Shown here in pieces: positions 1-64,000 of a stretch of DNA of 64,000 nt (positions are counted from its first letter, which is position 1; each line of letters opens with the position of its first letter). The translations under genes were made by a program, and so were the position numbers. Origin of the DNA: Acidobacteriota bacterium (GTDB lineage: Bacteria; Acidobacteriota; Thermoanaerobaculia; Gp7-AA8); assembly GCA_019244185.1 (NCBI GenBank), contig JAFATB010000014.1:1-64000 (forward strand), read 5' to 3'. The notes below the pieces were generated by a model, which saw only the letters and a list, made by a program, of their open reading frames with translations, searched no databases and had not been told where the DNA came from.

Positions 1-2810
1 GCACCCGGCTTCGGTAGCCCACTGCCCGCGGCGAGCAACGCTTTCCCGAGCGCTTCGCCCACGGCATCGCCGAGGCCCATCACTTCGCCCGTCGACTTCA
101 TCTCGGGGCCGAGATACGTATCGACGTGCGTCAACTTGTTCATCGAAAACACTGGCGCTTTGGCGGCGATCAACTCGCCTGCTGGCCAGAGGCCGCACTC
201 CTGCAGAGGCAGGCCCAGCGCAGCCGCGATCGCCAGGTCAACCATCGGCACCCCGGTCACCTTCGAGAGGAACGGCACGGTTCGGCTGCCGCGTGGATTG
301 ACCTCGATGACGTAGACGACACCCTCGAAGACGACGTACTGGATGTTGAACAGTCCGCGCACTCCGAGCGCACGGCCGAGCTCGGTGGTGTACCGAACGA
401 TCGTGTCGATCAGCTCCGGCGTGAGGGACTGCGCCGGATACAACGCGATGCTGTCGCCTGAGTGCACGCCAGCCCGTTCGACGTGCTCCATGATCCCTGG
501 AATAAGGACCCGGCTTCCGTCGCAGATGGCGTCCACCTCGATCTCGGCGCCCTCCAGGTACTTATCAACCAGCAGCGGCTTCTTGCCCGCAATTTCCTTT
601 GCCGTCGCGGCGAACTCCATGAGCTCGTCCGCCGTGCGGCACACCTCCATCGCGCGTCCCCCCAGCACGAAGGACGGTCGCACCAGTACGGGATAGCCGA
701 GCTGCTCGGCCAGGCTGACCGCGTCGGGTGCCGACTGCACGATCCCGCCCGGCGGCTGAGGAATGCCGAGCTGGTCCAGCAGCTCGCTGAAGCGATCACG
801 ATCCTCGGCGACGTCTATCGCGTGCAGATCGGATCCGAGCAACGTGTAGCCCGCGTGGACCAGTGGTTCGGCAAGGTTGATCGCCGTCTGCCCGCCAAAC
901 TGCGCCAGAACCAGCGGTGCCTGGCCGTCGAACGTTTCGTTTTCGAGAACGTCGCGAACGGATTCGTCATCCAGCGGTTCGAAATACAGGCGTGTGGAGG
1001 CATCGAAATCCGTGCTGACGGTCTCGGGGTTGGAGTTGATCATGATGCTGCTCACGTTCTGCTCGCGCAGAGCGTTCGCGGCCCGTACAGAGCAATAATC
1101 GAACTCGATGCCCTGGCCGATCCGGATTGGACCCGACCCGAGCACAACGACTTTGCGGCCGGGCAGTGCGGGCGCCTCGTTCTCCGCTTCGTACGTGCCG
1201 TAGAAGTACGGCGTAACGGCTTCGAACTCAGCCGCGCAGGTGTCGACCATCTTGTACGTCGTTCGGATGCCCCAGGCCTTCCGACGGTCGCGCACGCGCT
1301 CGGGCATGTCGTCGAGCAAGGTGCCGATCTGTTGGTCCGAAAAGCCGAGGCGCTTGGCGCGTCTGGCCAGCCCGGGCGTGAGGCTCGGCGCCTGGAGCAG
1401 CGAACGTTCGCAGTCGACGATGTTCTGGAGCTTGTGCAGGAAGAACGGGTCCATGCCGGACCAGTCGGCCAGCTTCTGCGGCGTGTGTCCACGTCGCAGG
1501 GCCGCCATCAGCGCCCAGAGACGTTGATCGTTCGGCTCGCGGATCATTCGCTCGAGATCGGCTGCCGTCCAGTTCGGGTCTTCCCACAGCAGGTCGCGGC
1601 TGCGCATCTCGAGCGACCGCACCGCTTTCTGCAGCGCAGCCTCGAAGCTGCGGTCGATCGCCATCGCCTCGCCTGTCGACTTCATCTGAGTGCCGAGTCG
1701 GCGGTCACCGTCAGGGAACTTGTCGAATGGCCAGCGCGGGATCTTGACCACCAGGTAGTCCAGCGCGGGCTCGAAGGCGGCGGTCGTGCGTTTGGTTACG
1801 GCGTTCGGGATCTCGTGCAGGCGCCGACCGACCGCGATCTTGGCCGTGACGCGCGCGATCGGGTACCCGGTGGCCTTGGACGCCAGGGCAGACGAGCGGC
1901 TGACGCGCGGATTGACCTCCACGACGGCGTAGTCGCGCGACTTCGGGTCGAGCGCAAACTGGACATTGCACCCGCCGATGACACCGAGCGCGCGAATGAT
2001 GCGCAATGCCGCCGACCGCAGCATCTGGTATTCCTGATCCGAGAGTGTCTGTGAGGGCGCGACGACGATCGAGTCGCCGGTGTGCACGCCCATCGGATCG
2101 AAGTTCTCGATCGAGCAGACGATGATCACGTTGTCGGCGCGGTCGCGCATCACCTCGAGCTCGAACTCTTTCCAGCCGATCACCGACTCTTCGACGAGCA
2201 CGCGATGCACGGGCGAGAGGTCGAGCCCGCGCGCCATGATCGTGCGCAGCTCTTCGACGTTGTACGCGATGCCGCCGCCCGAGCCGCCGAGCGTGAACGA
2301 TGGGCGAATGACGAGCGGATAGCCGATGCGCGCGGCGAACTGTTCCGCGTCCTCGATCGTCGCCGCGTACGCCGACTGCGGCACGTCGACGCCGATCGAC
2401 GTCATTTTCTCTTTGAAGAGCTGCCGGTCTTCCGCGGTCTTGATGGCGTCGTAGTTCGCGCCGATCAGTTCGACGCCGTGGCGTTCGAGCGCGCCGTTCT
2501 CATAGAGCGCAATGGCGAGGTTGATGCCGGTCTGGCCGCCGACGGTCGGCAGGATCGCGTCCGGCTTCTCGCGTTCGAGGATGCGCTCGAGCGTCGCGGG
2601 GGTGAGCGGCTCGATGTACGTGCGGTCCGCGAACTCCGGGTCCGTCATGATCGTGGCCGGGTTCGAGTTGACGAGGATGATGCGGTAGCCCTCGTCTTTC
2701 AGTGCCTTGCACGCCTGCGTTCCCGAATAGTCGAACTCCACCGCCTGACCGATGACGATGGGACCGGAACCGATGATGAGGATGGAGTGGAGATCGGTGC
2801 GTTTCGGCAC
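1..2810 (-). CDS. carB: Carbamoyl-phosphate synthase large subunit (runs off the window's left edge)
   Basis: Manual translation from GTG 2810 (alternative ATG 2819): [37 protein letters not shown]...[11 protein letters not shown]...[18 protein letters not shown]...[12 protein letters not shown]. The same frame holds at the positions checked down to 1. Absent from the ORF track because there is no stop in the window. Confidence 0.97.
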
Positions 2811-20205: not shown

Positions 20206-20241
20206 ACGGGGCGCGGTTCTTCCGACCGCGCCCCGTTTTTT
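20206..20241 (+). terminator. Intrinsic terminator of ftsZ/dcw
   Basis: 12-bp stem ACGGGGCGCGGT/ACCGCGCCCCGT followed by a T-run. Confidence 0.85.
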
Positions 20242-20248
20242 CGAGAGG

Positions 20249-24058: not shown

Positions 24059-24079
24059 GGGACCGAGGCTTTCGAGTAT

Positions 24080-25015: not shown

Positions 25016-25029
25016 TCGGAAAGAGCCGA

Positions 25030-26187: not shown

Positions 26188-26213
26188 GCGCCGATGCCAG
26201 AATAGCGGAAAAG

Positions 26214-26828: not shown

Positions 26829-26832
26829 ATCG

Positions 26833-47255: not shown

Positions 47256-47365
47256 CTGCCGTAGTATAAACTCGCGTCGATTATTTGATTTCTCGAATCG
47301 AGCGGCGTAGATCGTCGGCGTGATCCGCTGACACCAAGGTCATCTTCGGGTTGGAGGTTGGGGTT

Positions 47366-48967
47366 ATGTGGAGATGGGTTACCCGCGGCCTGGTACTCAC
47401 CTTTGTTGCGGCGCTGTCCGCGCCGGCACTTTTCGCGCAGACATTTACGTTCACCGGTGACGTCGATCGCCCCGATCCGGCGAAGACGCAATCGGGCATC
47501 ATCGAGGTCCGCGGCTGGGCGCTCGATCCCGGTCAGATCTCGCGCATCGAGCTCTGGGTCGACGACCAGTTCAAGCAGAACGCGGTGATGTTCCTCCCGC
47601 GCATCGACGTCGAGCAGGCGTTCCCCGACTGGCCCGGCATCCACACCGCCCGCCCCGGCTTCATCACCGGCTTCCATACCACCGACGGTCCGCACACGAT
47701 CGAGATGCGGATCTATACGCAGGACGGCCAGGTCCACTTCCTCGGCCGCCGCGTCATCAACGTCAACAACAGCATCAACCAGCCGCCGTTCGGCTTCGTC
47801 GACATCCCCGACGGCAACGGCGTCTACAACGTGTCCGGCGCGTTCCCGGTGAACGGCTGGGCCGCGGACCTCGACGGCGTGCAGAAGGTCGAGGTGCTGA
47901 TGGACGACGGCGTGCTGCAGGGCGCCGTCTACGGCGACGCGCGTCCCGACGTCGCCGCGACGTATCCCGACTTTCCCGCCGCGGCCTTCAGCGGCTGGGT
48001 CGCGAACGTCGACACCACGCGCATCGAGAACGGCCCGCACACGCTCACCGTGCGCGTGACCGATCGCAATGGCGTCCCGGCGCTCATCGGGCGCCGCACG
48101 GTACAGGTCATCAACAACGACAACTTCCTCAAGCCGTTCGGCTTCATCGACGAGCCGCAGCGCGACGCGGTGCTCTACGGCACGCTGTGCGGCGAAGGCG
48201 ATCAGGGCGGCCCGATCGTGTCGCCGCCGATCCGTCCCACCGCGCACATCACGCCGGTCCGCGGCTGGGCACTCGACCTCGGCACGCGCGAGAACACCGG
48301 CCGCGTCGCGTACGCCGAGCTCCTCGTCGACGGCGTGCGCTGGCTCTCGACCAACAACTGCGGCGTCGTCGAAGGGGAGTTCGCGAACTGCTACGGCCTC
48401 CCGCGCTTCGACGTCGCCAAGTACTACCCGTCGTTCCCCGACGCGCCGCGCTCCGGCTATCTCTTCACGCTCGACGTCGGCGCGCTGCTGAACCTCGGCG
48501 TACGCCCCGGCAATCACACGCTTTCCGTTCGCGTCGGCGATCGCGAGGGCACGTTCTCCGAGATCCCGAACGCCGACGGCATCCCGGTCTTCTTCCAGTG
48601 CGCGGAATCGACGCTGCACTTCCCGGCGCAGGGATTCATCGAGTTCCCGGCGAACTTCGACTACGTCGGCGGCACGGTGGTCTTCCGCGGCTGGGCGCTG
48701 ACCGAGGGACCGGCCGACGTCGTGATCGGCGTGGAGCTGTTCGTCGACGGCACGTTCGTCGGCACCGCGCAGTACGGCTTCCCGCGCACGGACGTCGAGG
48801 ATCAGTTCCCGTTCATCACCGGATCGCTCAACTCCGGCTGGATGTTCCAGATGGACACGCGCATTCTTCCGAACTCGCGCCACCAGCTCACGGCGGTAGC
48901 GGTCGACAACCGCGGCACGCGCACGATCATCGGCTCGAGCTACTTCTACACCGAGAACAACAACTAG
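47366..48967 (+). CDS. Secreted protein with four tandem Ig-like repeats
   Basis: Signal peptide; four repeats of G.(V/I)D.P...GWA(L).....R.DV...(F/Y)P....G...D....G.H.L. Confidence 0.8.
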   Translation: MWRWVTRGLVLTFVAALSAPALFAQTFTFTGDVDRPDPAKTQSGIIEVRGWALDPGQISRIELWVDDQFKQNAVMFLPRIDVEQAFPDWPGIHTARPGFITGFHTTDGPHTIEMRIYTQDGQVHFLGRRVINVNNSINQPPFGFVDIPDGNGVYNVSGAFPVNGWAADLDGVQKVEVLMDDGVLQGAVYGDARPDVAATYPDFPAAAFSGWVANVDTTRIENGPHTLTVRVTDRNGVPALIGRRTVQVINNDNFLKPFGFIDEPQRDAVLYGTLCGEGDQGGPIVSPPIRPTAHITPVRGWALDLGTRENTGRVAYAELLVDGVRWLSTNNCGVVEGEFANCYGLPRFDVAKYYPSFPDAPRSGYLFTLDVGALLNLGVRPGNHTLSVRVGDREGTFSEIPNADGIPVFFQCAESTLHFPAQGFIEFPANFDYVGGTVVFRGWALTEGPADVVIGVELFVDGTFVGTAQYGFPRTDVEDQFPFITGSLNSGWMFQMDTRILPNSRHQLTAVAVDNRGTRTIIGSSYFYTENNN

Positions 48968-51925: not shown

Positions 51926-51975
51926 GAGATTCCGCGTATTTCCGGCGTTTTTCAACGCCGTGGCGTGAGCTGAAA

Positions 51976-52869
51976 TTGCCAGTCAAAGGCGTGCTGTTTC
52001 TGAATCGTTCATCGGGCGCGAAACTGCCGCCTGCCGAGGCCGAGGCGCTGCGCGCGGCGGCCGGGGAGGCGAACGTCGACGTGATCGCGCTCGCGCCGGA
52101 CGTCGACATCCCGCGCACGATCCGCGAGCACCTCGCCCGCGGCACGCGTCTCTTCATCGCCGCGGGCGGCGACGGCACCGTGCACCACGTCCTGCAGCCG
52201 CTCGTGAACACGGAGGCGTGTCTGGCCGTGCTGCCGATCGGCACGTACAACCACTTCGCGCGCGATCTCGACATCCCGCTCGACTGGCGCGCCGCGCTGG
52301 AGGTCGCGCTGACCGGCGACAAGCGCCAGATCGACGCCGCGCGCGTGAACGACCGCTACTTCGTCAACAACCTGTCCATCGGTCTCTATCCCGAGCTCGT
52401 GGCGCGGCGCGAGGAGCGCGGCCGCGATTACCCGCGCTGGAAGGCGCGCCTGTGGGCGGCGTACGTCACGCTGCGCAAGTATCCGCATGTCACGGCGACG
52501 CTCGAGTCCGAGCACCATCACGAGGTCCTGCGCACGCACGTCTTCATCGTGTCGAACAACTCGTACGACCTCTCGCGGGCCGGAATCGAAGCGCCGCGCT
52601 CGACGCTCAGCGAGGGACGCCTCTCGGTCTACTGGCTGCCGCACGTGCCGCGGCTGCGCCTCACGCGCTACATCGCGCGCTACCTCGCGGGACGCGTGCA
52701 CCAGGCGCCCGGCTTCCGCTCGTTCCGCACCACGCGCATGCGTTTGCAGTCGTCGCGCAAGAAACTCTCGGTCGGACTCGACGGCGAGCTGTTCGTGCTC
52801 GACACGCCGCTCGTCATCACCAGCGTGCCGCAGTCGCTCCTTGTCAAAGTCCCGCGTGAGGGATACTGA
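51976..52869 (+). CDS. Diacylglycerol-kinase-like (YegS/BmrU family) lipid kinase
   Basis: FLNRSSG, AAGGDGT, LPIGTYNHFARDL, LDGE. Confidence 0.9.
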   Translation: MPVKGVLFLNRSSGAKLPPAEAEALRAAAGEANVDVIALAPDVDIPRTIREHLARGTRLFIAAGGDGTVHHVLQPLVNTEACLAVLPIGTYNHFARDLDIPLDWRAALEVALTGDKRQIDAARVNDRYFVNNLSIGLYPELVARREERGRDYPRWKARLWAAYVTLRKYPHVTATLESEHHHEVLRTHVFIVSNNSYDLSRAGIEAPRSTLSEGRLSVYWLPHVPRLRLTRYIARYLAGRVHQAPGFRSFRTTRMRLQSSRKKLSVGLDGELFVLDTPLVITSVPQSLLVKVPREGY

Positions 52870-52874: not shown

Positions 52875-54617
52875 ATGCCGGGCATCTTCGACACCGTGGT
52901 CGATCCGCGCGTGCAGTCGCTCTTGCGCCGCGAGCAGCGGCTGCTCGTCGAACTGCGCGAGACGCTCGAACGCGAACAGGGCGACGAACGGCGGCGCGTC
53001 GAGGAACTGCTGGCGACGCTCGAGGATCTCTTCACGATCGTGATCGTCGGCGAGTTCAACGCCGGCAAGTCGTCGCTGATCAACGCGCTCTTCGGCGCGA
53101 AGCTGCGCGTCGAAGGTCCGATCCCCGTCGATGACGTGATCTCGATCCTCCGCTACGGCGAACAGGCTTCGCAGAAGCGCATTTCGGATTACGTGACCGA
53201 GCAGTTCTATCCGGTCGATTTCCTGCGCAACATCACGCTCGTCGACACGCCGGGCACGAACTCGATCGTGCAGCGGCATCAGGAGATCACCGAGGATTTC
53301 ATCCCGCGCGCGGATCTCGTGCTGTTCGTAACGTCGATCGATCGGCCGCTCTCCGAGTCGGAGCGCCGCTTCCTCGAATACATCCGCGAGTGGGGGAAGA
53401 AGGTCGTCTTCGTGTTGAACAAGGTCGACACGAAATCGGACGACGAGATCGCGCAGGTGCTCGACTACCTGAAGACCAACACGCGCGCGATCTTCGGCTT
53501 CGATCCGACGATCTATCCGACCGCGGCGAAGCTCGCGCTCGAGGCGAAGCTCGGCAACGCGCCGCCGCGCGACTGGACGCGCAGCCGCTTCGAGGCGCTC
53601 GAGGACTACATCTTTCAGGTGCTCTCCGAAAAAGAACGCGTGCGCCTCAAGCTCGCCGCGCCGCTGGAGACGATCCTCAGCCTCTCGCGCAAGCAGTTCC
53701 GCATGATCGAGTCGCGGCGTGAAGTGCTCGCCGCCGATCAGGCGCGCATCACGTCGATCAACGACCAGCTCGAACGCGCGCGCGCCGATCTGCAGTCGAA
53801 CTTCCGCCAGTTCGTCATCCGCATCGACAACCTGATGATGGACCTCGAGCGCCGCGGCATCGACTTCCTCGAACGCTACGTCCGCATCCAGCACGTGATG
53901 ATGCTGCGCGACGCGCTGCGCTTCCGCGAGGAGTTCGATCGCCAGGTCTTCGCCGGCTGGAAAGGCAACATCGACGCGACCATTCAGGAAGCGGTCGACT
54001 GGATCGTGCGCGAGAACATGAAGCTCTGGTCCGGCACCGTCGAGGCGTTTCATCGCCGCGCCGAATCCGACGCGCGCAACGAGGAGATCGTCGGCCGCGT
54101 CGGACGGGAGTTCGCGTACAACCGCGAAGAGGTCTACGCGCGCATGCGCACGAACGCGGAGCAGCGCCTCGCCGCGTACGACGTGAACGTCGAATCGCGC
54201 CGCATCATCGACAACGCGATGCGCGCCGTCCTCCACTCCTTCGGCCTCGGCGCCGGCGCGCTCGGACTCGGCTATCTCCTCACGACCGCCGTCAGCAGCA
54301 CCGCCGTCGACGTCACCGGCCTCACCGCCGCGACGATGCTGCTCGTCACGAGCTTCCTCATCCTTCCGTACAAGCGTAGCAAGGCGAAGGACGAGTTCCG
54401 CCGCCGTATCGAGGAACTGCGCACGCAACTGCAGGAGTCGCTCGACCGCGAGTCGAGCACCGAGATCGACCGCATGCTCCGCTCGATCACGTCCGCGTTC
54501 GAGCCGTATCAGCGCTTCTACGCCGCGGAGTCCGAAAAGATCGAACGCTTCGCCGCGAAGCTGACGTCGATCGACGGCGAGGCGCGCGCGATCACGGGCG
54601 AGATCGAGAAGCTCTGA
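52875..54617 (+). CDS. Bacterial dynamin-like GTPase
   Basis: G1 GEFNAGKSS, G3 DTPG, G4 NKVD; long helical stalk with a hydrophobic hairpin near the C-terminus. Confidence 0.9.
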   Translation: MPGIFDTVVDPRVQSLLRREQRLLVELRETLEREQGDERRRVEELLATLEDLFTIVIVGEFNAGKSSLINALFGAKLRVEGPIPVDDVISILRYGEQASQKRISDYVTEQFYPVDFLRNITLVDTPGTNSIVQRHQEITEDFIPRADLVLFVTSIDRPLSESERRFLEYIREWGKKVVFVLNKVDTKSDDEIAQVLDYLKTNTRAIFGFDPTIYPTAAKLALEAKLGNAPPRDWTRSRFEALEDYIFQVLSEKERVRLKLAAPLETILSLSRKQFRMIESRREVLAADQARITSINDQLERARADLQSNFRQFVIRIDNLMMDLERRGIDFLERYVRIQHVMMLRDALRFREEFDRQVFAGWKGNIDATIQEAVDWIVRENMKLWSGTVEAFHRRAESDARNEEIVGRVGREFAYNREEVYARMRTNAEQRLAAYDVNVESRRIIDNAMRAVLHSFGLGAGALGLGYLLTTAVSSTAVDVTGLTAATMLLVTSFLILPYKRSKAKDEFRRRIEELRTQLQESLDRESSTEIDRMLRSITSAFEPYQRFYAAESEKIERFAAKLTSIDGEARAITGEIEKL

Positions 54618-54623: not shown

Positions 54624-57545
54624 TCACGTCTGCGCGATCGCATCGTCGGACAACACAAAGGAGCTCTGCGCGAGATCGGCACCCGGCTCGAGCAGATCGG
54701 GGAAGACGATGCCGGGGAGCACCTGGATGTCGAAGATCTCCTGCACCGAGCCTTCGAAGCGCACGAACGCCACGATCGCGCCGCTGCGGACATCGATCGC
54801 CCAGATGCCGCAGGAGCGCTCGTCCGCGCGCAGCCGCTCGCCGAGAGGGATGTTGTCGAAGACGCGCTCGCGCACCTGCGAGAGTCCGACGAACGCGATC
54901 GGTCCCGCGAACGCGAGTCCGCGCGTGAAGCCGGGAAGCTGGGCGATGGTCTCGCGCCGTCCGCTGCGCAGGTCGAGCGTGGCAAGCGTGCCGGCGGCGC
55001 TCTCGAGGATGTAGGCCTGTCCGTTGTAGAGGCGGGGCGAGTGCGGCATCGCGAGTCCCGTCGCCACGAGCTCGCCCGTCGGGATGTCAATGACGATGCC
55101 GCCGCTCGCTTTCCGCTCGCGCCAGCCTTCGGCGGTGTCGGTGGCGCCGAGGGCGGTGGCGTAGCGCGGCACACCATCGACGATCGCGAGGCCGTTGAGG
55201 TGGCAGCGGTCCTCCGCGGCGAGCTTGCTGATGAACGGCGGACGCCAGCGCGGCAGGAAGCTGTGCTCGGAGTCGAGCGTGCAGAGCGCGGAGAAGCGCG
55301 TGTTCACGAGCCACAGCTCGCCGTCGTCCGCGAAGGCCAGCTCGTGCACGCGGATGTCGCCGGTGACGTGCATGTTGCGCGGGAGGAAGCACGCGTCGTG
55401 ACGCGCGGGATGCAGGCGCGCCGCGGCGCTCGGGACGTTGCGGTAGTCCCAGATTTCACCGAGCGTTCCGATCGCGAGGCGAGTGCCGTCGAAGGCGAGT
55501 CCCATCGGGCTCGCGAAAAAACGGAAGTGCGTGTTCAGCCGCTCGCCGTCGGCGCGCAGCAGCACGACGCGGCCGCTCTGATACGTCGAGACCGCGAGCG
55601 AGATGCGCAGCTCCGCGAGCAAGCGCGGGAAGTTCGTCGTGTGCACGCTGCGGAAGTCGGTCGCGTTTTGCGGCGGCGCATCGGCCGACGTTGGATTCGC
55701 GGCCGGCGCGCGCGCCGCCGATGCGGGCATCGTGCGCTGCCGCGGCGCGGACGCGAAGAGATCGCGCGCACGCGCCGCCGCTGGCTCGATGAGCGGCAAG
55801 AGTGGCGCGAGCTCCGTCGCATTGCGCTGCCACTTCGCGGCATCCGGCGGCGTCAGCGTGTGCCGCGACGGCGGGAGCGGCGCCGTGAGCGTGCGGTCCC
55901 AGCGCAGCCCGACGTAGTCGCAGAGCCGCTCCATCGTTTCCTGCGGCTGCTCGATCAGCGCGTCGTAACTCGCCACGCACCACGATTCCGGCGGCAGCAT
56001 TTCCAGATCGTCGAGCACGACCGTCGTCGCCGCGATCCACTGCCGCGCGACGACCTCCGCCAGCGGCCGGCCGATCGTGTCGCGCCAACCCGGCGTCAGC
56101 AGCAGCGACCACGGTTGTCCTTCCCATCCCGGCAAGTCGGGATACGTGATGAAGCGTCCCGATCGCCACGCGTCGAGCATGCTGCTGATCGTCGCCCGCT
56201 CGTCGCGGTAGAGATAGATGAAGAACGCGTCGGCGAAGAGCGCGCGCAGAAACGGGATGCGCAGCGCGTTCTTCGGCGTCTTCTCGAGAAAGCGGAAGCG
56301 ATGCGTCGCCGGCGCGCGCCCGTCGCGGTCGACGGCAGCGGAGGCGAAGCGCGCACGCAAATCGTCCGCGACGGATTCGCTCGCATCGGGCGCCGTCAGC
56401 CGGTTCGACTCCCAGCCGTGCGCGGCGGGATGCAGCGCGCCGATGCCTTCGATGAGCGCGTGACTCTCGCCGCCGATGGTCATCACCTCCGGCGCCTGCG
56501 CGAGCGTTTCGAAGAGCAGCGACGATCCGGAGCGCGGCGACGAGACGATGAAGATCGGACGATCGAATGCGTTGCGGCTGCGCGCGATCGACGGCGCCGT
56601 GCGGCGCGCGAGATCGGTGTTGAGCGCGGGACGGAGCAGGATCTGCTGCACGGCCTGCGCGGCATCGATGCCGTTCGGCAGCATCCACGCGCCGAGGTGC
56701 CGCGCGATGCGCTGCTCGGTCAGCTCGAGCAGTTCGGCGTACGCGCGCCAGCCGCGCGGCGCCGCCTCGTGCATGCGCCAGAGCGACTGCCACGCGTCGA
56801 GGAAGCGCACGACCTCGTCGCGCAGCGCGCGTCCGGCGGCGCTCGCGTCGAGATCGGCGGCGAAGATCTCGAAGAGCGCATGTTGTTCCGCCGGCGCCAT
56901 CACCACCGGGAAGTTGTGGACTTCCATGCGCGGCTCCGCGGATCGCGCTTCATCGAATGCGATCGTGGTTGCCTCGGGCGCAGGCGCGCCGGAAAACGGA
57001 TCCCAGCCTTCGTCGATGAGCGCGCGCAGGCGCGGCGAGCCGGCCGTGTCCGCGACGAGATGAATGCGCCGCGTCGGATTCGGATTGATGACGTTGTGCA
57101 GGCGCCACGTATCGAAGATCCACGTCTCGCCGGGCGCCATGTGCAGCTCGCGGTCGCCGCAGAGAAAGCGCACCGCGGGATCGGTGACGATCGGCACGTG
57201 CACGCGCACGCGCGTCTGCCAGTAGTAGTTCACGTCCACATGCGCGGTCGCCTCGGCATTGCCGTCGATGCGCATCAGCCGCGTGCGTCCGATCGGCGCC
57301 TCGAATGCGGCGAGCAACTGCCGCAGCGCCGAACAACGCGCCAGGTGCGGCGTCGCGCGCATCTCGCCCTTCACGCCATCGTCGTTGGGATCGCCTCCGA
57401 CCGCGATCAGCGGCAGCGCGAAATTGCCGGGATGACCTTCGGGATGCGGACGCCAGTCCGACTCGGCGAACGCGGACACCTCCGCCGCCAGTCGCGCCGC
57501 GTCGAAGTGCAGGGGAAGTCGAAGGAATTCAATGGGTAACCGCAT
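54624..57545 (-). CDS. Triple fusion: Asp/Asn beta-hydroxylase + PAPS sulfotransferase + TIGR03032/DUF4915 domain
   Basis: HVD...RVHVPI...WIFDTWRLH...RIHLVAD; FIVSSPRSGSSLL, LEKTPKN, YRDERATISS; TGDIRVHEL, VNTRFS.LC, EDRCHLNGLA, MPHSPR, PGFTRGL. Start probably ATG 57545. Confidence 0.88.
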   Translation of the reverse strand: MRLPIEFLRLPLHFDAARLAAEVSAFAESDWRPHPEGHPGNFALPLIAVGGDPNDDGVKGEMRATPHLARCSALRQLLAAFEAPIGRTRLMRIDGNAEATAHVDVNYYWQTRVRVHVPIVTDPAVRFLCGDRELHMAPGETWIFDTWRLHNVINPNPTRRIHLVADTAGSPRLRALIDEGWDPFSGAPAPEATTIAFDEARSAEPRMEVHNFPVVMAPAEQHALFEIFAADLDASAAGRALRDEVVRFLDAWQSLWRMHEAAPRGWRAYAELLELTEQRIARHLGAWMLPNGIDAAQAVQQILLRPALNTDLARRTAPSIARSRNAFDRPIFIVSSPRSGSSLLFETLAQAPEVMTIGGESHALIEGIGALHPAAHGWESNRLTAPDASESVADDLRARFASAAVDRDGRAPATHRFRFLEKTPKNALRIPFLRALFADAFFIYLYRDERATISSMLDAWRSGRFITYPDLPGWEGQPWSLLLTPGWRDTIGRPLAEVVARQWIAATTVVLDDLEMLPPESWCVASYDALIEQPQETMERLCDYVGLRWDRTLTAPLPPSRHTLTPPDAAKWQRNATELAPLLPLIEPAAARARDLFASAPRQRTMPASAARAPAANPTSADAPPQNATDFRSVHTTNFPRLLAELRISLAVSTYQSGRVVLLRADGERLNTHFRFFASPMGLAFDGTRLAIGTLGEIWDYRNVPSAAARLHPARHDACFLPRNMHVTGDIRVHELAFADDGELWLVNTRFSALCTLDSEHSFLPRWRPPFISKLAAEDRCHLNGLAIVDGVPRYATALGATDTAEGWRERKASGGIVIDIPTGELVATGLAMPHSPRLYNGQAYILESAAGTLATLDLRSGRRETIAQLPGFTRGLAFAGPIAFVGLSQVRERVFDNIPLGERLRADERSCGIWAIDVRSGAIVAFVRFEGSVQEIFDIQVLPGIVFPDLLEPGADLAQSSFVLSDDAIAQT

Positions 57546-57629
57546 AGCTCCGGCAAAAAGCATCGACAGGCGGGGGTTCCGCTCCGATAATCCCATAGTT
57601 TCCAACTTTGGCCGAAACGGAGACCTTCC

Positions 57630-60600
57630 CTGAAACCTCGTGACCAACGCCCTTCCTCGCAGTTCGACCGGCGATCTGCGGAGATCGGCGCGCGACGCTC
57701 GGTGCTCCGTGACTCGAAGCCGTCAGGGTCCCTCGCCGCCGCGATCGCCGCCGGCGCCGTGACGCTCACCGCCGCCGGCGCACAGGCGGCGACCATCACC
57801 GTCAACTCGATTGCGGACAACACGACCGCCGGCGATGCGCAATGCACGCTGCGCGAGGCGCTCGCGAACGCGAATGCGAACGCCGACACGACCGGCGGCG
57901 ACTGCGTGGCGGGCAGCGGCGCCGACACGATCAACCTGACCGCGCTCGCGGGCACGATCACCCTCGGCGGCACGCAGCTGACGATCAGCGATTCGACGAC
58001 GCTCACCGGTCCCGGCGCCTCCACGCTGACCATCGACGCGGCGAGCAACTCCCGCGTCTTCTACATCTACAACAACGCAACCGCGCTCACCGTATCGATC
58101 AGCGGACTCACGGCGACGCGCGGCCGAGGGGCGACCGGCGGCAACATCGTCGCGAAGGGCGAGATCGTCACGCTGAACGGCGTCACCTTGAGCGGTGGTG
58201 TGGCGGCGACGGCGGGCGGCGGCGTCGCCAATGTCGGCGGATCGCTCACCGTTCGCTCGAGCACGATCAGCGGGAACACCGTCCAGGGCGTCGTTGGCGG
58301 CGCCGCGATCTACAACGTCGGCGGAGCGCTGACCGTCGACACGTCCGTGATCACGTCGAACTCCGCGAGCTCCCTCGCGGCGCGCGCTGGTGCGATCGCC
58401 ATCCTGTCGACCACCCAGCCCGCCAGCATCACCAATACGCAGATCACGAACAACACGAGCGTCGCAAAGGGCGCCGCCTTCGGCGTGAAAACGACGGCCG
58501 CGGGCGGAACGCTCACCATCGATCACAGCGTCATCACCGGAAACACGGCCACCGGCCGTGGCGGTGCGTTCTTCCTTTATCGGAGCGGCGGCGCGATCAC
58601 GCTGTCGCACGATCAGATCAACAACAACACGACCCAGAACCGCGGCGGCGCGATCTTTCTCTACAACGCCAGCGCGAACGTCACCATCAGCGACACCACG
58701 ATCTCCGGAAACACCGCGCCGACCGCGGCTGGAAACGGCGGAGGCATCTTCTTTTACAAAGGCAGCGCCGGCACGAAACTGTCGATCCAGCGCAGCACCA
58801 TCAGCGGCAACTCGGTGAATCGCGCCGGTGGCGGCATCTTCTTTTACAAAGGCAGCGCACAGCTGGAGATCGAAGACTCCACGATTGCCAACAACACCGC
58901 CGGCACGACCGGTGGCGGCATTTTCGACAGGGGGCCTTTCGGCGGGACCGCGTCGATCGCAATCGGTGAGTCGACCATCACCGGCAACAGCGCGGGCACG
59001 AGCGGCGGGAATCTGAGCGTCACCGCGGTTCCGATGACGATCGACAACACGATCGTCGCCAACGGCACGGCGCCGGCGAGCCCGGACATGGCCAGCGGCG
59101 CCTCCAACGTAACCATGAACTACTCGCTGCTCGAGAACACCTCGGGTGCGACGTTCACCGGAACGGGCAATATCACCGGCGTCGATCCCAGTCTCGGACC
59201 GCTGCAGGACAACGGCGGCCCGACGTTCACCCAACGGCCGAACATCGGCAGCCCGGTGCTCGACGCCGGCGATCCGTCCTTCACGCCGCCGCCCAGCACC
59301 GACCAGCGCGGTCTGCAGCGCGTCTACAACGGACGCATCGACATCGGCTCGCTCGAGCAGGGAGCGATGAGCTCCATCTCGTTCTCCACTGCCGGCGCGA
59401 CGATCTCCGAGGGTGCGGGGTCGGTGACGGTCACGGTGAATCGCGGCAGTGGCGAAGGCACGGCAAGCGTCAACTACTCGACGAGCAACGGCACGGCGCA
59501 AGCGGGCGCCGATTACACGGCCACCTCCGGCACGCTGACGTGGGGATCCGGCGACTTCACACCGAAGTCGTTCACGATTCCGATCCTCGAAGAAGCGATC
59601 TTCGAAGGGAACGAGTTCTTCAACGTGACGCTCAGTGCGCCGTCGAACGCGACGCTCGCGGCACCGGCGGCGGAGACGGTGACGATCGCGGACAACGATC
59701 CGCAGCCTGCGCTCTCCATCAACGGCGTCTCGCAGGCGGAAGGGAACTCCGGCACGACGAGCTTCCCGTTCGTGGTCTCGCTGTCGAATCCGTCCGCGCA
59801 GACGGTGACGGTGAACTACACGACCGTGAACGGCACGGCCATCGCCGGCAGCGACTACACCGCGCAGAGCGGCACGCTCACGTTCGCGCCCGGCACCACC
59901 GTCCAAACCATTCCGGTCTCCGTCCTCGGCGATGCGCTCAATGAGGCGAGCGAGACATTCACCGTGACGCTCTCCTCCCCGACGAACGCCACCATCGCGA
60001 CGACCACCGGCACGGGCACGATCGGCAACGACGATCCGCAGCCGTCGCTGTCGATCGGCAGCGTTGCGAAAGCCGAGGGAAACAGCGGCAGTACGAGCTT
60101 CGTGTTTCCGGTCACGCTCTCCGCGCCGAGCGGGCAGACGGTGACGGTCGCGTACGCGACGGCGAGCGGCAGCGCGACCGCGGGCAGCGACTACACGACC
60201 ACCAGCGGCACGCTCACGTTCACGCCGGGCACGACGGCGCAGAACATCACCGTGCCGGTGACCGGCGACACGACGAACGAGACGAACGAAACGTTCACCG
60301 TGACGCTGTCCGCGCCGACGAACGCCACCATCGGCACCGCCACCGGCACAGGCACGATCGACAACGACGACGCTGCTCCGGCGGTGTCGGTCGGCGACGT
60401 CACGCAGGCCGAGGGAAACAGCGGCAGCACGAGCTTCGTCTTTCCGGTGACGCTGTCCGCGGCCAGCGAGCAGACTGTGACCGTCAACTACTTGACTTCC
60501 GACGGCAGCGCCGTCGCGGGCAGCGACTACACCGCGGCCAGCGGCACGGTCACGTTCGCGCCGGGCGTGACGTCGCAGTCGATCTCCGTGGCGGTCGTCG

Positions 60601-63600
60601 GCGACACGACCAAAGAGCCGAGCGAGACGTTCACCGTGACGCTCAGCGCGCCGTCGAATGCGATGCTCGGCACCGCGTCCGCGACCGGCACGATCGTCGA
60701 CGACGACAGCGCGCCGGTGCTCGCGATCGGCAACGTCTCGCAGGCCGAAGGCAACAGCGGCACGACGACATTCTCGTTCCCGGTCACGCTCTCCGCGCCG
60801 AGCGGACAGACGGTCACCGTGAGCTACGCCACCGCGAACGGCAGCGCCGTCGCCGGCAGCGACTACGGTGCGACCAGCGGCACGCTCACGTTCGCGCCGG
60901 GCGTGACGTCGCAGACCGTGAACGTGCCGGTCACCGGCGATCTCACGAACGAGGCCGACGAGACGTTCACGGTGACGTTGTCGTCATCGACGAACGCGGC
61001 CATCGCAACGGCCACCGGCACCGGCACGATCGTGAACGACGACGCGCCGCCGCTGCTGTCGATCGACGACGCCTCGCAACCGGAAGGCAACAGCGGCTCG
61101 GCGAGCATGCCGTTCGCGGTGACGCTCTCGACGCCGAGCGAGCAGTCGATCACGGTCAACTACACGACGTCCAACGGCAGCGCGGTCGCCGGCAGCGACT
61201 ACACGGCCACGAGCGGCACGCTGACGTTCGCTCCCGGCGCGACGGTGCAATCGATCAATGTCCCGATCAGCGGCGACACGACGGCGGAGACGAACGAGAC
61301 GTTCACGGTGACGCTGAGCGCGCCGTCGAATGCGGCCATCGGCGACGGCAACGCGACCGGCACCATCGTGAACGACGACTCCGGTCCCGTCGTCTCGATC
61401 AGCGGCGTCTCGCAGGCGGAGGGGAGCGGCGGGACGTCCGCGTTCACGTTCAACGTGACGCTGTCGCAGGCCAGCGAAGAGACCGTGACCGTCAACTACT
61501 TGACCAGCAACGGCAGCGCGATCGCGGGCAGCGATTACACCGCCGCCAGCGGCACGCTCACGTTCGCACCCGGCGTGACGTCGCAGACGGTCACCGTGAC
61601 GGTCATCGGCGATACGACCAGCGAGCCGGACGAAATGTTCTCGGTCATGCTTTCCGCGCCGGTGAATGCGAGCGTCGGCACCGCGTCCGCGACCGGCACG
61701 ATCGTCGACGACGACACCGCGCCGGTGCTCGTCATCGGCAACGTGTCGCAGTCCGAAGGCACGGGCGGCTCGACCACGTTCACGTTCCCCGTCAGTCTCT
61801 CCGCGCCGAGCGGACAAACCGTCACCGTCCATTACGCGACCGCCGACGGATCCGCGGGCGCAGGCAGCGATTACGGCGCGACGAGCGGCACGCTCACGTT
61901 CGCGCCGGGCGTGACGACGCAGACGGTCGACGTGCCGGTCACCGGCGATGCCACGAACGAAGCGAACGAGACGTTCACGGTGAACCTCTCCGCCTCGACG
62001 AACGCCGCCATCGCCACCGCGACCGGCACCGGCACGATCGTCAACGACGATCCGGTGCCGTCCCTCTCGATCGCGGGGACGGCGCAGGCGGAAGGGAACA
62101 GCGGGCTCACGAACATGCCCTTCGTCGTGACGCTGTCCGCGGCGAGCGAACAGACCGTAACGGTCAACTACTTGACGAACAACGGCAGCGCAATCGCGGG
62201 CAGCGACTACACCGCCACGAGCGGCACGCTCACGTTCGCGCCCGGCGTCACGTCGCAGACGATCGACGTACCGATCGCCGGCGACACCACCTCGGAGACG
62301 GACGAGACCTTCACCGTCACGCTCGGCACGCCGTCGAACGCGGCCATCGCCGTCAGCAGCGCCACCGGCACGATCGTCAACGACGATGCCGGTCCGGTAC
62401 TCTCGATCGACAGCGTCTCGCAGGCCGAAGGCAACAGCGGCACGAGCAACTTCACATTCAACGTCACGCTCTCCGCGCCGAGCGAGCGCACCATCACCGT
62501 GCAGTACGCGACCGCGGACGGCAGCGCGACCGCGGGCAGCGATTATGTCGCGACGAGCGGCACGGTTGCGTTCGCGCCCGGCGTGACCTCGCAGAACGTC
62601 GTCATCGCGGTGAACGGCGACACGGCGAACGAGCCGGCGGAGACGTTCAGCGTCACGCTCTCGTCGCCGGTCAACGCCACGATCGGCACGGCCAGCGGCA
62701 GCGGCACGATCGTCGACGATGACGGCGCGCCGGTGCTCGCGATCGGCAACGTCTCGCAGGCCGAGGGCAACAGCGGCACGACCACGTTCTCGTTCCCGGT
62801 CACGCTCTCCGCGCCGAGCGGCCAGACCGTGACCGTGCAGTACGCGACCGCGAACGGCAGCGCCGTCGCCGGCAGTGACTACGGCGCGACGAGCGGCACG
62901 CTCACGTTCGCGCCCGGCGTGACCTCGCAGAACGTCGATGTGCCGGTCACCGGCGATCTCGCGAACGAAGGCGATGAGACGTTCACGGTGACGCTGTCGT
63001 CGTCGACGAACGCCGCCATCGCCACGACCACGGGAACCGGCACGATCGTCAACGACGACGGCGGTCCCACGGTCACGATCGCCGACGCATCGCAGGCGGA
63101 AGGCGACAGCGGCAGCTCGAATCTCTCGTTCGCGGTGACGCTCTCCGCGCCAAGCGAGCAGACCGTCACCGTCAGCTACGCCACCGCGAACGGCACCGCG
63201 ACCGCCGGCAGCGACTACACCACGACGAGCGGCCTGCTCACGTTCGCGCCCGGCGTGACCGCGCAGACGATCGACGTCCCCGTCATCGGCGACACGAACA
63301 TCGAGCCCGACGAAACGCTCTCGCTGCAACTCTCCGGCGCGACGAACGCGACGATCATCCGCGCGCAGGCGACCGGCACGATTCTCAACGACGACGGCGC
63401 GGTCACGCCCGCGATCTCCGTCAGCGACGTCTCCGTCCTCGAAGGCAGCGCCGGTACCACGCCCGCGACCTTCACCGTGACGCTCAGCGTTCCGACGACG
63501 CAGACGGTGACGGTGCACTACACGACGACGTCGGGCAGCGCGCAGGCGGGCGCCGACTTTGCGCCCACGCAGGGCACGCTCGTCTTCGCGCCCGGTACGA

Positions 63601-64000
63601 CCTCGCAGACCGTGACCGTCGGCGTCGTCGGCGACACTGACGTCGAAGCCAACGAGACCTTCACCCTCGATCTCTCCGCGCCCGCGGGCGCGACGATCGC
63701 GCGCGCACGTGGCACGGCCACGATCGTGAACGACGACTACGCGGCGCCGCCGTCAACGCTGCCGGCGCTTCGCATCAGCGACGTGCGCGTCGCGGAAGGC
63801 GATCGCGGTCTCAGCGACGCCACGATCGTGGTGACGCTCAGCGCGCCGAGCGCCACCGACGTCACCGCCGACTTCAGCACCGCCGACGGCACGGCGACCG
63901 CCGGCGTCGATTACGCCGCGACGTCCGGCTCGGTCGTCGTTCCCGCCGGCACGCTGTCGCGCGCGATTCACGTGCCGATCGTCGGCGACACCGCGGTCGA
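57630..64000 (+). CDS. Giant secreted surface protein: CSLREA domain, right-handed beta-helix, choice-of-anchor-Q-like region, at least 14 Calx-beta repeats (runs off the right edge)
   Basis: Manual translation: ...AAGAQA|ATITVNSIADNTTAGDAQCTLREAL; GGAIF/GGGIF-N repeats; LGPLQDNGGPT...SPVLDAG...TDQRG...DIGSLE; then EGNSG...V.Y.T.NGSA.AGSDY...SGTLTF...GD...E..ETF.V.LS...GTI.NDD. Start is CTG 57630 or GTG 57702. Absent from the ORF track. Confidence 0.93.
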   Translation, partial: MKPRDQRPSSQFDRRSAEIGARRSVLRDSKPSGSLAAAIAAGAVTLTAAGAQAATITVNSIADNTTAGDAQCTLREALANANANADTTGGDCVAGSGADTINLTALAGTITLGGTQLTISDSTTLTGPGASTLTIDAASNSRVFYIYNNATALTVSISGLTATRGRGATGGNIVAKGEIVTLNGVTLSGGVAATAGGGVANVGGSLTVRSSTISGNTVQGVVGGAAIYNVGGALTVDTSVITSNSASSLAARAGAIAILSTTQPASITNTQITNNTSVAKGAAFGVKTTAAGGTLTIDHSVITGNTATGRGGAFFLYRSGGAITLSHDQINNNTTQNRGGAIFLYNASANVTISDTTISGNTAPTAAGNGGGIFFYKGSAGTKLSIQRSTISGNSVNRAGGGIFFYKGSAQLEIEDSTIANNTAGTTGGGIFDRGPFGGTASIAIGESTITGNSAGTSGGNLSVTAVPMTIDNTIVANGTAPASPDMASGASNVTMNYSLLENTSGATFTGTGNITGVDPSLGPLQDNGGPTFTQRPNIGSPVLDAGDPSFTPPPSTDQRGLQRVYNGRIDIGSLEQGAMSSISFSTAGATISEGAGSVTVTVNRGSGEGTASVNYSTSNGTAQAGADYTATSGTLTWGSGDFTPKSFTIPILEEAIFEGNEFFNVTLSAPSNATLAAPAAETVTIADNDPQPALSINGVSQAEGNSGTTSFPFVVSLSNPSAQTVTVNYTTVNGTAIAGSDYTAQSGTLTFAPGTTVQTIPVSVLGDALNEASETFTVTLSSPTNATIATTTGTGTIGNDDPQPSLSIGSVAKAEGNSGSTSFVFPVTLSAPSGQTVTVAYATASGSATAGSDYTTTSGTLTFTPGTTAQNITVPVTGDTTNETNETFTVTLSAPTNATIGTATGTGTIDNDDAAPAVSVGDVTQAEGNSGSTSFVFPVTLSAASEQTVTVNYLTSDGSAVAGSDYTAASGTVTFAPGVTSQSISVAVVGDTTKEPSETFTVTLSAPSNAMLGTASATGTIVDDDSAPVLAIGNVSQAEGNSGTTTFSFPVTLSAPSGQTVTVSYATANGSAVAGSDYGATSGTLTFAPGVTSQTVNVPVTGDLTNEADETFTVTLSSSTNAAIATATGTGTIVNDDAPPLLSIDDASQPEGNSGSASMPFAVTLSTPSEQSITVNYTTSNGSAVAGSDYTATSGTLTFAPGATVQSINVPISGDTTAETNETFTVTLSAPSNAAIGDGNATGTIVNDDSGPVVSISGVSQAEGSGGTSAFTFNVTLSQASEETVTVNYLTSNGSAIAGSDYTAASGTLTFAPGVTSQTVTVTVIGDTTSEPDEMFSVMLSAPVNASVGTASATGTIVDDDTAPVLVIGNVSQSEGTGGSTTFTFPVSLSAPSGQTVTVHYATADGSAGAGSDYGATSGTLTFAPGVTTQTVDVPVTGDATNEANETFTVNLSASTNAAIATATGTGTIVNDDPVPSLSIAGTAQAEGNSGLTNMPFVVTLSAASEQTVTVNYLTNNGSAIAGSDYTATSGTLTFAPGVTSQTIDVPIAGDTTSETDETFTVTLGTPSNAAIAVSSATGTIVNDDAGPVLSIDSVSQAEGNSGTSNFTFNVTLSAPSERTITVQYATADGSATAGSDYVATSGTVAFAPGVTSQNVVIAVNGDTANEPAETFSVTLSSPVNATIGTASGSGTIVDDDGAPVLAIGNVSQAEGNSGTTTFSFPVTLSAPSGQTVTVQYATANGSAVAGSDYGATSGTLTFAPGVTSQNVDVPVTGDLANEGDETFTVTLSSSTNAAIATTTGTGTIVNDDGGPTVTIADASQAEGDSGSSNLSFAVTLSAPSEQTVTVSYATANGTATAGSDYTTTSGLLTFAPGVTAQTIDVPVIGDTNIEPDETLSLQLSGATNATIIRAQATGTILNDDGAVTPAISVSDVSVLEGSAGTTPATFTVTLSVPTTQTVTVHYTTTSGSAQAGADFAPTQGTLVFAPGTTSQTVTVGVVGDTDVEANETFTLDLSAPAGATIARARGTATIVNDDYAAPPSTLPALRISDVRVAEGDRGLSDATIVVTLSAPSATDVTADFSTADGTATAGVDYAATSGSVVVPAGTLSRAIHVPIVGDTAV
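59370..64000 (+). repeat. Intragenic 336-bp Calx-beta tandem repeats
   Basis: The SDY motif recurs every 336 bp from about 59850 to 63210; antisense shadow ORF ends at 59855, 60191, 60527 ... 63215 show the same period. Confidence 0.93.

Follow-up and report, generated by a model that had tools for sequence, protein, structure and literature searches.

A fused oxygenase, sulfotransferase and DUF4915 propeller encoded beside a beta-helix surface protein: a candidate system for sulfation before export

The window (the whole stretch of 64,000 nucleotides that was analysed) contains a gene in which an Fe(II)/2OG oxygenase, a PAPS-dependent sulfotransferase and a TIGR03032/DUF4915 domain are joined, and this gene is transcribed divergently from that of a large secreted protein. 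The locus raises the question of what such enzymes modify, and what the third domain contributes. The original prediction was that Asp/Asn residues of Calx-beta repeats in the secreted partner are hydroxylated and then O-sulfated. Overall, the hydroxylate-then-sulfate interpretation was partly supported: judged from sequence, the enzyme trio stands beside a beta-helix protein in several bacterial groups, and the third domain has the histidine layout of known sulfate-relay enzymes, which points to a possible sulfate decoration of surface proteins before export. The features concerned are the following.

54624..57545, minus strand: fusion gene (oxygenase, helical domain, sulfotransferase, DUF4915), product predicted cytoplasmic
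54648..55661, minus strand: TIGR03032/DUF4915 six-bladed beta-propeller, with invariant H734, H782, N784, P834-H835 and R875
55743..56567, minus strand: PAPS-dependent sulfotransferase (PF13469), nearest solved relatives CurM sulfotransferase and TPST1/2
56583..56930, minus strand: conserved helical domain after the oxygenase, into which hydroxylase alignments reach
57033..57545, minus strand: Fe(II)/2OG oxygenase domain (PF05118), with H102-D104-H150 and R160
57546..57629, no strand: divergent intergenic gap, with a sigma-70-like site and GGAGA at 57619-57623
57630..57788, plus strand: partner leader, with a basic n-region and a Gly/Ala-rich weak h-region
57789..59360, plus strand: CSLREA-like cap, right-handed beta-helix and choice-of-anchor Q, the conserved partner module
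59373..64000, plus strand: 14 Calx-beta repeats, read as a stalk of variable length; the reading frame runs on to C4:64769

The reading frame of the fusion (54624-57647, minus strand) is open from TTG 57647. Because homologues begin at the Met of ATG 57545, a length of 973 aa was adopted, and all residue numbers are counted from this start. The anticipated polypeptide of about 970 aa was confirmed as an intact succession of 2OG oxygenase, helical linker, PAPS sulfotransferase and TIGR03032/DUF4915, and the proposed HMM search matched PF05118 (E 8.7e-11), PF13469 (E 2.8e-24), PF16261 (E 2.3e-121) and TIGR03032. The fusion is not an artefact, since the best 120 of 1,750 matches all have the three domains. 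Neither a signal peptide nor a membrane helix was found in it (maximum Kyte-Doolittle 19-mer 1.43), and profile searches gave no glycosyltransferase domain.

Residue conservation was scored in 119 homologues, the closest matches, which are 55-77% identical. The HxD...H triad and the two PAPS motifs noted originally were near-invariant in this set. The oxygenase has the double-stranded beta-helix fold, the triad H102-x-D104...H150 and the 2OG-binding R160 expected for PF05118, with these residues kept in 119/119 homologues. Its nearest structures were L-proline cis-4-hydroxylase (Z 16.0) and Cpz10 (Z 15.4), described as an AspH-like hydroxylase of the caprazamycin pathway (PMC9814697); a further small-molecule hydroxylase (Z 14.9) and human AspH (Z 14.8) followed. 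The alignments of proline cis-4- and 3-hydroxylase extended into the helical domain (model range 1..297 and 4..292). As the oxygenase is no closer to AspH than to small-molecule hydroxylases, the Asp/Asn specificity originally proposed is unsupported. Animal AspH carries a TPR substrate-binding domain and acts on a cysteine-bounded EGF substrate, whereas the Pfam profile search gave no TPR match in the fusion, and the partner contains three cysteines and therefore no EGF-type site.

The sulfotransferase also looks intact, with its 5'-PSB and 3'-PB motifs and its catalytic Glu and Lys: R338 is kept in 117/119 homologues, E360, K422 and R447 in 119/119, and S455 in 118/119. CurM was the best sequence match (E 6.3e-7). 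TPST1/2 have the same PF13469 fold, with a weak similarity (E about 1e-5) level with that of CurM, and the TPST2 motifs PRSG, GEE, KDP and RD align with PRSG, GGE, KTP and RD of the fusion. Tyrosylprotein sulfotransferases have a bacterial counterpart in RaxST. PAPS would be supplied by a PAPS synthase encoded in the same genome, an open frame of 558 codons that includes an APS kinase domain (C10:172605-174278) and that reads as sat-cysC by inspection. Such sulfate activation genes co-occur with the family, APS kinase being present in 24/26 DUF4915 genomes vs 185/301 overall; it lies inside six DUF4915 loci (4/100 in one survey, 2/26 in a fresh one), each of which has a sulfotransferase. A PAPS sulfotransferase was located within 7 kb of 36/98 clade-1 DUF4915 loci, directly downstream of DUF4915 in 3/3 clade-2 loci, and fused to it in the one clade-3 locus read; in 62/98 loci none was found within 7 kb. 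Some loci without a sulfotransferase have instead TPR plus GT9-like or GNAT fusions, the GT9-like matches being weak and confined to DUF4915 fusions other than that of the window. The window's oxygenase-sulfotransferase had a match in 0/5 genomes with a stand-alone DUF4915; other PF13469 genes were present in all five. A stand-alone DUF4915 gene also occurs in Synechococcus elongatus, which was positive in the control set.

The third domain is assigned with large margins (TIGR03032 406 bits vs a cut-off of 251.5; PF16261 405 vs 35) and was modelled as a six-bladed propeller (pLDDT 95.6). H734, H782, N784, P834, H835 and R875 are kept in 66/66 sequences from three remote clades and, in the predicted model, sit on the first strand of successive blades. 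In a profile alignment with PF14269 proteins (probability 77%, E 2e-5), H734, H782-x-N784 and H835 coincide with the motifs HD, HxN and QH. The corresponding ASST residues, taken from a review and a preprint, are His252, His356, Asn358 and His436 (PMC13426309), and in a second set His220, His283, Asn285 and His350 (bioRxiv 10.64898/2026.10.08.757636). Among the 50 structural matches listed, the longest alignment was that with ASST 3elq (Z 20.2, rmsd 3.6 over 275 residues). However, non-catalytic YWTD propellers ranked above it (Z 22-24), and PAL 3fw0 (Z 20.1) and lactonases (Z 20-21) were level with it. With the three clades, profile comparison gave 71% local and 85% global for the SGL control vs 77% and 42% for ASST; with clade 1 alone, 50% vs 7%. 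Atlas neighbours were SGL, strictosidine-synthase and NHL clusters, all below 0.9, and no ASST was among those listed. ASST Arg374 lacks a strictly conserved counterpart: R809 is invariant in clade 1 and missing in clade 3, whereas R875 is invariant across all clades, yet on another blade. The Pfam search gave no ASST family in the fusion, and the DUF4915 profile matched nothing below E 0.05 among sequences of solved structures. As it has no Pfam match and no preference for ASST over other propellers, we do not class DUF4915 as a member of the ASST family; it may work like one, given the histidine layout that alignment brings into register. SGL/lactonase propellers (PF08450) carry the calcium ligands Glu, Asn, Asn and Asp at their blade starts (columns E1, N79, N130 and D177, invariant in 12/12 SGL sequences); these are absent from DUF4915, which has His at three blade starts. 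No paper on TIGR03032 or DUF4915, nor an ASST-like reading of it, was found in the literature searched.

The partner runs past the window and has 2,355 aa from GTG 57702, in line with the >2100-aa secreted repeat protein expected. It has 14 Calx-beta stretches, with the motifs DY (x14), GD..E..E (x13) and [N/D/G]DD (x13). Its start is CTG 57630 or GTG 57702, and we infer CTG; the gap, estimated at about 85-155 bp, measures 84 bp with CTG (GGAGA 6 nt upstream) or 156 bp from GTG. The sigma-70-like site (57563-57591, plus strand) agrees with the consensus at 10/12 positions and is a consensus match only. The adhesin account was correct for Calx-beta and had overlooked the N-terminal domains: a CSLREA-like cap (TIGR04214 at 19.9 bits, below the cut-off of 25), a beta-helix (PF13229) and choice-of-anchor Q (NF041518, E 1.7e-17; 59184-59360). 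A C-terminal domain of ~215 aa is common to about 20 other open frames of the genome.

These overlooked domains turned out to be the conserved ones. The beta-helix/anchor-Q module occurs within 7 kb in 20/23 triple-domain loci from four phyla and in 55/98 DUF4915 loci, where chance would give about 0.6%, given 635 anchor-Q matches across 301 genomes; these counts, like the other locus counts here, include kin, which are not independent. Among fresh triple-domain loci it was present in 9/10 of the window's family and 3/7 elsewhere. Calx-beta accompanies 14/23 triple-domain loci, all of one class and with 1-14 copies, and lies within 7 kb of only 17/98 DUF4915 loci. None of the 6 triple-domain partners surveyed from three other phyla had it, nor did the two fresh ones from Actinomycetota. 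Being absent from these partners outside the window's class and variable in copy number, Calx-beta was rejected as the conserved partner, which is the N-terminal CSLREA/beta-helix/choice-of-anchor Q module. Thus the neighbourhood survey bore out a linkage to large secreted proteins far above chance and did not bear out one to Calx-beta. No partner was found nearby in 3/23 surveyed triple fusions and 4/7 fresh outside ones; the five partner-less genomes checked each had 1-11 anchor-Q genes elsewhere. Anchor-Q proteins mostly have no DUF4915 neighbour (3/73 metagenome loci have one, 1/16 with wide flanks), and a metagenome scan starting from the cargo gave no triple-domain locus. Specific neighbours that recur at clade-1 loci were limited to secreted repeat proteins and a single small gene without annotation; in clades 2 and 3, DUF4915 is encoded in sugar-modifying loci without beta-helix cargo. 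Across loci DUF4915 is constant while the fused or adjacent enzymes vary. Neither the DUF4915 tree (FastTree) nor a quick cargo tree supports an order of events.

Linked partners have a basic, weakly hydrophobic signal peptide. In the window's class its Gly+Ala fraction is 0.50 and its FILMV fraction 0.24 (n=23). The two fractions are 0.22 and 0.45 for control signal peptides (n=5); for unlinked genes from metagenomes, taken where the flanks are wide (n=9), they are 0.22 and 0.46. Tat export was rejected as a general route, as a TATFIND-like rule accepted 1/21 linked leaders in the class, 5/21 elsewhere and 0/35 unlinked ones. The linked partners end in varied anchors.

We propose that the fusion sulfates and hydroxylates the beta-helix protein, its candidate substrate, or a glycan on it before export, possibly in a two-step relay; this reading is plausible, at a little short of an even chance. 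A cytoplasmic system would modify the choice-of-anchor Q surface protein, with sulfate as the likely currency and the Calx-beta repeats as a stalk of variable length. The weak leader would slow Sec export so that the chain dwells in the cytoplasm; the oxygenase would hydroxylate the chain or a small carrier, and the PAPS sulfotransferase would then sulfate the new hydroxyl. H835 of DUF4915 could accept the sulfuryl group, as His436 does in E. coli ASST, and hand it to the beta-helix, where the final acceptor could be Ser, Thr, Tyr, a new hydroxyl or an attached sugar; this would resemble the Cpz8-to-Cpz4 relay, but within one polypeptide. This last step, taken by itself, is somewhat more doubtful than the whole. 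Rather unlikely, in our estimate, is the broader notion that DUF4915/TIGR03032 proteins are widespread, unrecognised cytoplasmic histidine-relay sulfotransferases, the fusion sulfating surface proteins or glycans before export and its clients being chosen by the basic weak leader.

The scheme has several precedents in part. Iyer et al. (2010) predicted, without a test, beta-hydroxylase and sulfotransferase neighbourhoods in which a co-encoded surface protein is hydroxylated and the hydroxyl then sulfated by the same two enzyme families (PMC2938197). The substrates in that scheme are tail-collar or collagen-like proteins, encoded alongside PhyH-methyltransferase and acetyltransferase genes. Our locus differs in its beta-helix/anchor-Q partner, in the fusion of the two enzymes and in the additional DUF4915 propeller, a domain that the account of the cassettes in that paper does not mention (PMC2938197). 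Tail-collar or collagen-like genes were not seen among recurrent DUF4915 neighbours, in a comparison made without a tail-collar profile. The ASSTs compared were E. coli ASST (3ELQ), D. hafniense ASTB and Cpz4 (9KF6) (PMC13426309, PMC6731281), and Cpz8/Cpz4 is described as a two-step sulfation (PMC13426309, PMC6731281, bioRxiv 10.64898/2026.10.08.757636). DUF4915 shares with them a six-bladed propeller with His, His-x-Asn and His in order on consecutive blades and the pairing with a PAPS-dependent sulfotransferase, and the caprazamycin route also has the AspH-like Cpz10. In contrast to ASST, it is more compact, has 9-10% structural identity and no signal peptide, appears to take its Arg from another blade and is fused to its sulfotransferase; unlike Cpz4, it is linked to secreted proteins and to no antibiotic cluster. 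BAHT (Aah, TibC) and HMW1C glycosylate beta-helix adhesins in the cytoplasm (PMC8151025), likewise pairing a dedicated enzyme with a beta-helical secreted client modified before export. They add sugars to type V clients, whereas our partners have varied anchors. Their substrates often have extended signal peptides; because this glycosylation does not depend on the signal peptide, our leader argument is an analogy only (PMC8151025). Searches on choice-of-anchor Q/CSLREA, on hydroxylase plus sulfotransferase and on protein sulfation at large listed matches unrelated by title.

Two other explanations deserve attention, each of which we consider unlikely. The fusion could attach sulfate to a small molecule, a lipid or a free glycan and leave the surface protein itself unmodified; that protein would bind or display the product, or would only be co-regulated. 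This agrees with the nearest oxygenase structures, with CurM as best sulfotransferase match, with the sugar-modifying loci of clades 2 and 3, with the triple fusions lacking adjacent cargo and with the known ASST acceptors, mostly small phenols or sugars (PMC13426309). However, genes for precursor supply, carriers or export do not recur in the surroundings of clade-1 loci, TPST1/2 too are among the nearest sulfotransferases, the altered signal peptide fits a cytoplasmic step on the chain, and all five partner-less genomes have anchor-Q genes elsewhere. Hardly different in probability is that the beta-helix protein is the client and DUF4915 no sulfur enzyme. PAL is a propeller with a His-zinc site; by analogy, the His trio would coordinate a metal that serves a lyase, hydrolase or processing reaction, or else the domain would hold the leader or chain while interchangeable oxygenase, sulfotransferase, glycosyltransferase or GNAT partners decorate it. 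The constancy of DUF4915 among changing partners, the oxygenase-DUF4915 fusions without a sulfotransferase (L067, L083, L275), the fold scores of PAL and the lactonases, the SGL/NHL-like atlas neighbours and the distinctive leader all suit this explanation. Against it, the SGL ligands are replaced by His and sulfotransferases accompany all three clades; moreover, a pure reader needs no shared His, His-x-Asn, His and Arg across clades with differing neighbours, including cargo-less sugar cassettes. Between the two roles first offered for TIGR03032, reader and third catalyst, this invariant set favours the catalyst.

The original idea, with Calx-beta Asp/Asn hydroxylated and then O-sulfated to tune calcium binding, we regard as very improbable. 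At least one Calx-beta is present in each of the 14 triple-domain partners that the first survey gave for the window's class and in 9/9 fresh ones, and human AspH trails the best oxygenase match by no more than about 1 Z unit; but the repeat is missing from the triple-domain partners of other phyla, its copy number varies, four other Calx-type frames of the genome do not lie near the fusion, and the TPR and EGF-type hallmarks are lacking.

Should sulfation before export be correct, a highly conserved family would gain a specific activity, checkable at H835 by a colorimetric pNPS assay, and an ASST-like enzyme would gain a physiological donor and acceptor; natural acceptors are unknown for most such enzymes (PMC13426309). 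Pre-export modification of beta-helix surface proteins would then extend from sugars to sulfate, and the 2010 prediction would become testable on a defined two-gene pair (PMC2938197).

A last observation concerns tyrosine, the peptide acceptor of TPST. A ladder motif, with Tyr 3-4 residues after GG[AG][ILVF], was seen in the discovery set at 66/137 rungs of triple-domain partners, 10/44 of sulfotransferase-only, 16/99 of DUF-only and 8/84 of control proteins. Set beforehand as a prediction, it held in 9 fresh kin loci (27/54 rungs). As a general substrate mark it was rejected, with 3/39 rungs outside the class vs 45/374 in the unlinked background; the tyrosine-rich motif is confined to one class and is kept only as a trait of the window's class lineage.

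The original prediction of a fusion joining an oxygenase, a sulfotransferase and TIGR03032 (DUF4915) was confirmed, as all three domains were matched by profiles and known catalytic residues are kept. The fusion, whose residues are numbered from ATG 57545, and its divergent partner are:

54624-57545, minus strand: fusion gene, 973 aa, with a PF05118 2OG oxygenase, a conserved helical domain, a PF13469 PAPS sulfotransferase and TIGR03032/DUF4915
From GTG 57702, end beyond the window: divergent partner gene, 2,355 aa

The catalytic residues of the oxygenase and sulfotransferase domains are kept in 117 to 119 of the 119 closest homologues. The closest homologues bear names that suggest the class Thermoanaerobaculia. 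By structural comparison the oxygenase is nearly equidistant from proline hydroxylases, Cpz10 and human AspH (Z 16.0 to 14.8), and the nearest solved relatives of the sulfotransferase domain are CurM and TPST1/2; neither domain is decisive for the substrate. The profile matches in the genome comprise one PF05118, one DUF4915, three PF13469 and an APS kinase. Also, one surveyed locus lacks DUF4915 behind the oxygenase, helical and sulfotransferase domains (L267:5235-6908), and three lack the sulfotransferase of an oxygenase-helical-DUF4915 protein (L067, L083, L275). The 3' end of the fusion is met convergently by genes for a dynamin-like GTPase (52875-54617) and a YegS/DAGK-type kinase (51976-52869), neither of which recurred around the other DUF4915 loci surveyed.

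The partner opens with a signal peptide and a CSLREA-like cap; a beta-helix, a choice-of-anchor Q (anchor-Q) domain and 14 Calx-beta repeats follow, and its C-terminal domain has no Pfam match. In a count of 98 DUF4915 loci that excludes the window and one duplicate, includes many short contigs and uses profiles built up from these same loci, a cap or anchor-Q module was found no more than 7 kb away at 20/23 triple-domain, 6/13 sulfotransferase-only, 29/60 stand-alone and 0/2 oxygenase-only loci. Independently, the curated NF041518 model finds anchor-Q next to the fusion in 12 genomes of the class among the matches listed; the background, at least 635 anchor-Q matches across 301 genomes, amounts to about 0.6% per 14 kb. 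The conserved neighbour is the CSLREA/anchor-Q module and not Calx-beta, which was found near only 17 of the 98 loci, its 14 triple-domain cases all within the window's class. Among fresh loci (three duplicates removed), a divergent partner stands at 9/10 in the window's family, each with 1-14 Calx-beta repeats, and at 3/7 outside it, none of these three with Calx-beta. Asp/Asn of the Calx-beta repeats, the target first proposed, is very improbable. The link runs one way, from DUF4915 to the anchor-Q partner and not the reverse: anchor-Q genes occur in 190/301 class genomes, and DUF4915 is nearby in just 3 of 73 partner-like metagenome genes. FG-GAP proteins adjoin 7 other loci (86 neighbours scanned, from 164 candidates).

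In linked partners of the window's class the h-region of the leader is rich in Gly/Ala and weakly hydrophobic (Gly+Ala 0.50, FILMV 0.24), with 6.4 Lys+Arg in the 20 residues before it (n=23). The corresponding values are 0.22, 0.45 and 4.2 in controls whose genomes have no DUF4915 match (n=5), 0.22, 0.46 and 3.3 in unlinked metagenome genes with wide flanks (n=9), and 0.27, 0.41 and 3.5 in an n=23 set of unlinked metagenome genes; linked partners in other phyla fall in between (0.37, 0.29 and 4.6, n=26). In this comparison start codons are putative, rows without an Ala-type cleavage site were removed, and kinship inflates the contrast. The window's partner may itself start at CTG 57630, which would give a 53-aa basic leader resembling those of its relatives; a site resembling a promoter, together with a GGAGA motif, favours this start. 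C-terminal anchors vary among partners. The domain of about 215 aa in the window genome's partner (G000 C4:64086-64766, L290), just beyond the window end, recurs in about 20 further open frames of that genome, single or tandem and mostly C-terminal, and may serve for sorting or anchoring in this lineage specifically. Within the window's class, a tyrosine motif in the rungs of the beta-helix went together with the fusion; it failed a pre-registered test elsewhere and was rejected as a general mark.

DUF4915 is confidently modelled as a six-bladed propeller (pLDDT 95.6). Across 66 sequences (25 of clade 1, to which the 98 loci belong, and 3 and 38 of the remote clades 2 and 3), the non-glycine residues present in at least 65 are H734, H782, N784, P834, H835, S849, R875 and R892, clade 2 having two extra residues between H782 and N784. 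This conservation is not a selection effect, because clades 2 and 3 were not chosen by the DNA pattern used in the search. In the model's secondary structure, H734, H782, H835 and R875 each begin a blade's first strand, in four successive blades, and active sites of propeller enzymes sit at such positions. Arylsulfate sulfotransferases (ASST) are described, in the cited sections, with His252, His356, Asn358, Arg374 and carrier His436 (PMC13426309) or His220, His283, Asn285, Arg301 and His350 (bioRxiv 10.64898/2026.10.08.757636). Aligning a combined DUF4915 profile with 18 PF14269 proteins brings H734, H782, N784 and H835 into register (77%, E 2e-5), and the same PF14269 profile detects Cpz4, the ASST of the caprazamycin pathway (E 4e-11). 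The longest structural alignment among the matches listed is to an ASST. Control comparisons weaken the likeness: an SGL control equals ASST in profile score, YWTD propellers outrank it in structural comparison, and the Atlas neighbours are SGL/NHL. It is the identity of the residues, with the context, that makes the ASST-like case; the likeness may reflect remote descent or convergence.

A PAPS sulfotransferase accompanies all three clades (36/98 clade-1 loci, 3/3 clade-2 and the one clade-3 locus read). Sequence comparison suggests repeated pairing with DUF4915, because the sulfotransferases are only distantly related (clade 1 versus 3, 28% over 151 aa; clade 1 versus 2, not significant). 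APS kinase is present in 24/26 DUF4915 genomes versus 185/301 overall, and in 12/12 versus 39/72 within the family; six DUF4915 loci contain its gene. Two findings speak against an obligate relay: the sulfotransferase is missing from most clade-1 loci, and five stand-alone-DUF4915 genomes gave no match to the fusion type, though other sulfotransferases occur there.

Gene linkage, fold and conservation are observed; we infer all chemical steps. The leader would slow the beta-helix protein, leaving cytoplasmic time for its hydroxylation and then sulfation, on the chain or a sugar attached to it, and DUF4915 would use H835 to handle the sulfuryl group; this leading reading falls just short of an even chance. 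The same client with DUF4915 as a metal enzyme or holder is rather unlikely, and a small molecule, lipid or glycan as product is about as unlikely. The cited part of PMC6731281 describes two-step sulfation by Cpz8 (a PAPS sulfotransferase) and Cpz4. The hydroxylation and sulfation proposed for the beta-helix client follow the logic that Iyer et al. (2010) predicted, in the section cited (PMC2938197), for co-encoded tail-collar or collagen-like proteins, whereas the partner here is a beta-helix/anchor-Q protein. BAHT and HMW1C modify beta-helix adhesins before export, with sugars rather than the sulfate proposed here, as far as the cited part of PMC8151025 describes. No paper naming TIGR03032 or DUF4915 was found in the literature searched.

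DUF4915 matches occur in 28/301 genomes of the class, 26 above the cut-off. The oxygenase-plus-helical profile matched 17/124 genomes of the window's family and 7/181, 1/151 and 4/251 in three outside groups selected around known carriers; these tallies take in the unpublished genome G175, on which alone no claim depends. Records labelled Actinomycetota, Verrucomicrobiota and Pseudomonadota contain further triple-domain loci. The triple label costs 9 changes on a quick DUF4915 tree; therefore, the enzyme set was gained or lost repeatedly.

The window also holds a small glycan-modification cluster (20156-27750), which may be another PAPS consumer:

22257-23417: second PF13469 sulfotransferase
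23360-24058: WbqC
25030-26187: DegT-type aminotransferase
26214-27750: two methyltransferases

In clade-2 loci L295-L297 a sulfotransferase directly follows DUF4915 (3/3), with a transketolase N-terminal gene nearby and, in L295 and L296, an adjoining epimerase. A small protein of about 170 aa, without a Pfam or NCBIfam match in the members scanned, adjoins DUF4915 in about 11 loci, mostly of Pseudomonadota, among them:

L083:12209-13241
L099:2048-2542
L103:6683-7201
L107:9385-9936
L095:1349-1894
L128:1083-1568

DUF4915-TPR fusions (L063, L064, L069, L122) carry a C-terminal extension with weak heptosyltransferase (GT9-like) matches, and a GNAT domain is joined to the DUF4915 N-terminus in L043 and L113. 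Elsewhere in the window, a secreted-looking 973-aa protein (49034-51955, minus strand) had no Pfam or NCBIfam match, and a 538-aa protein (47351-48967, plus strand) has a Big_7 Ig match and repeated GWA motifs.
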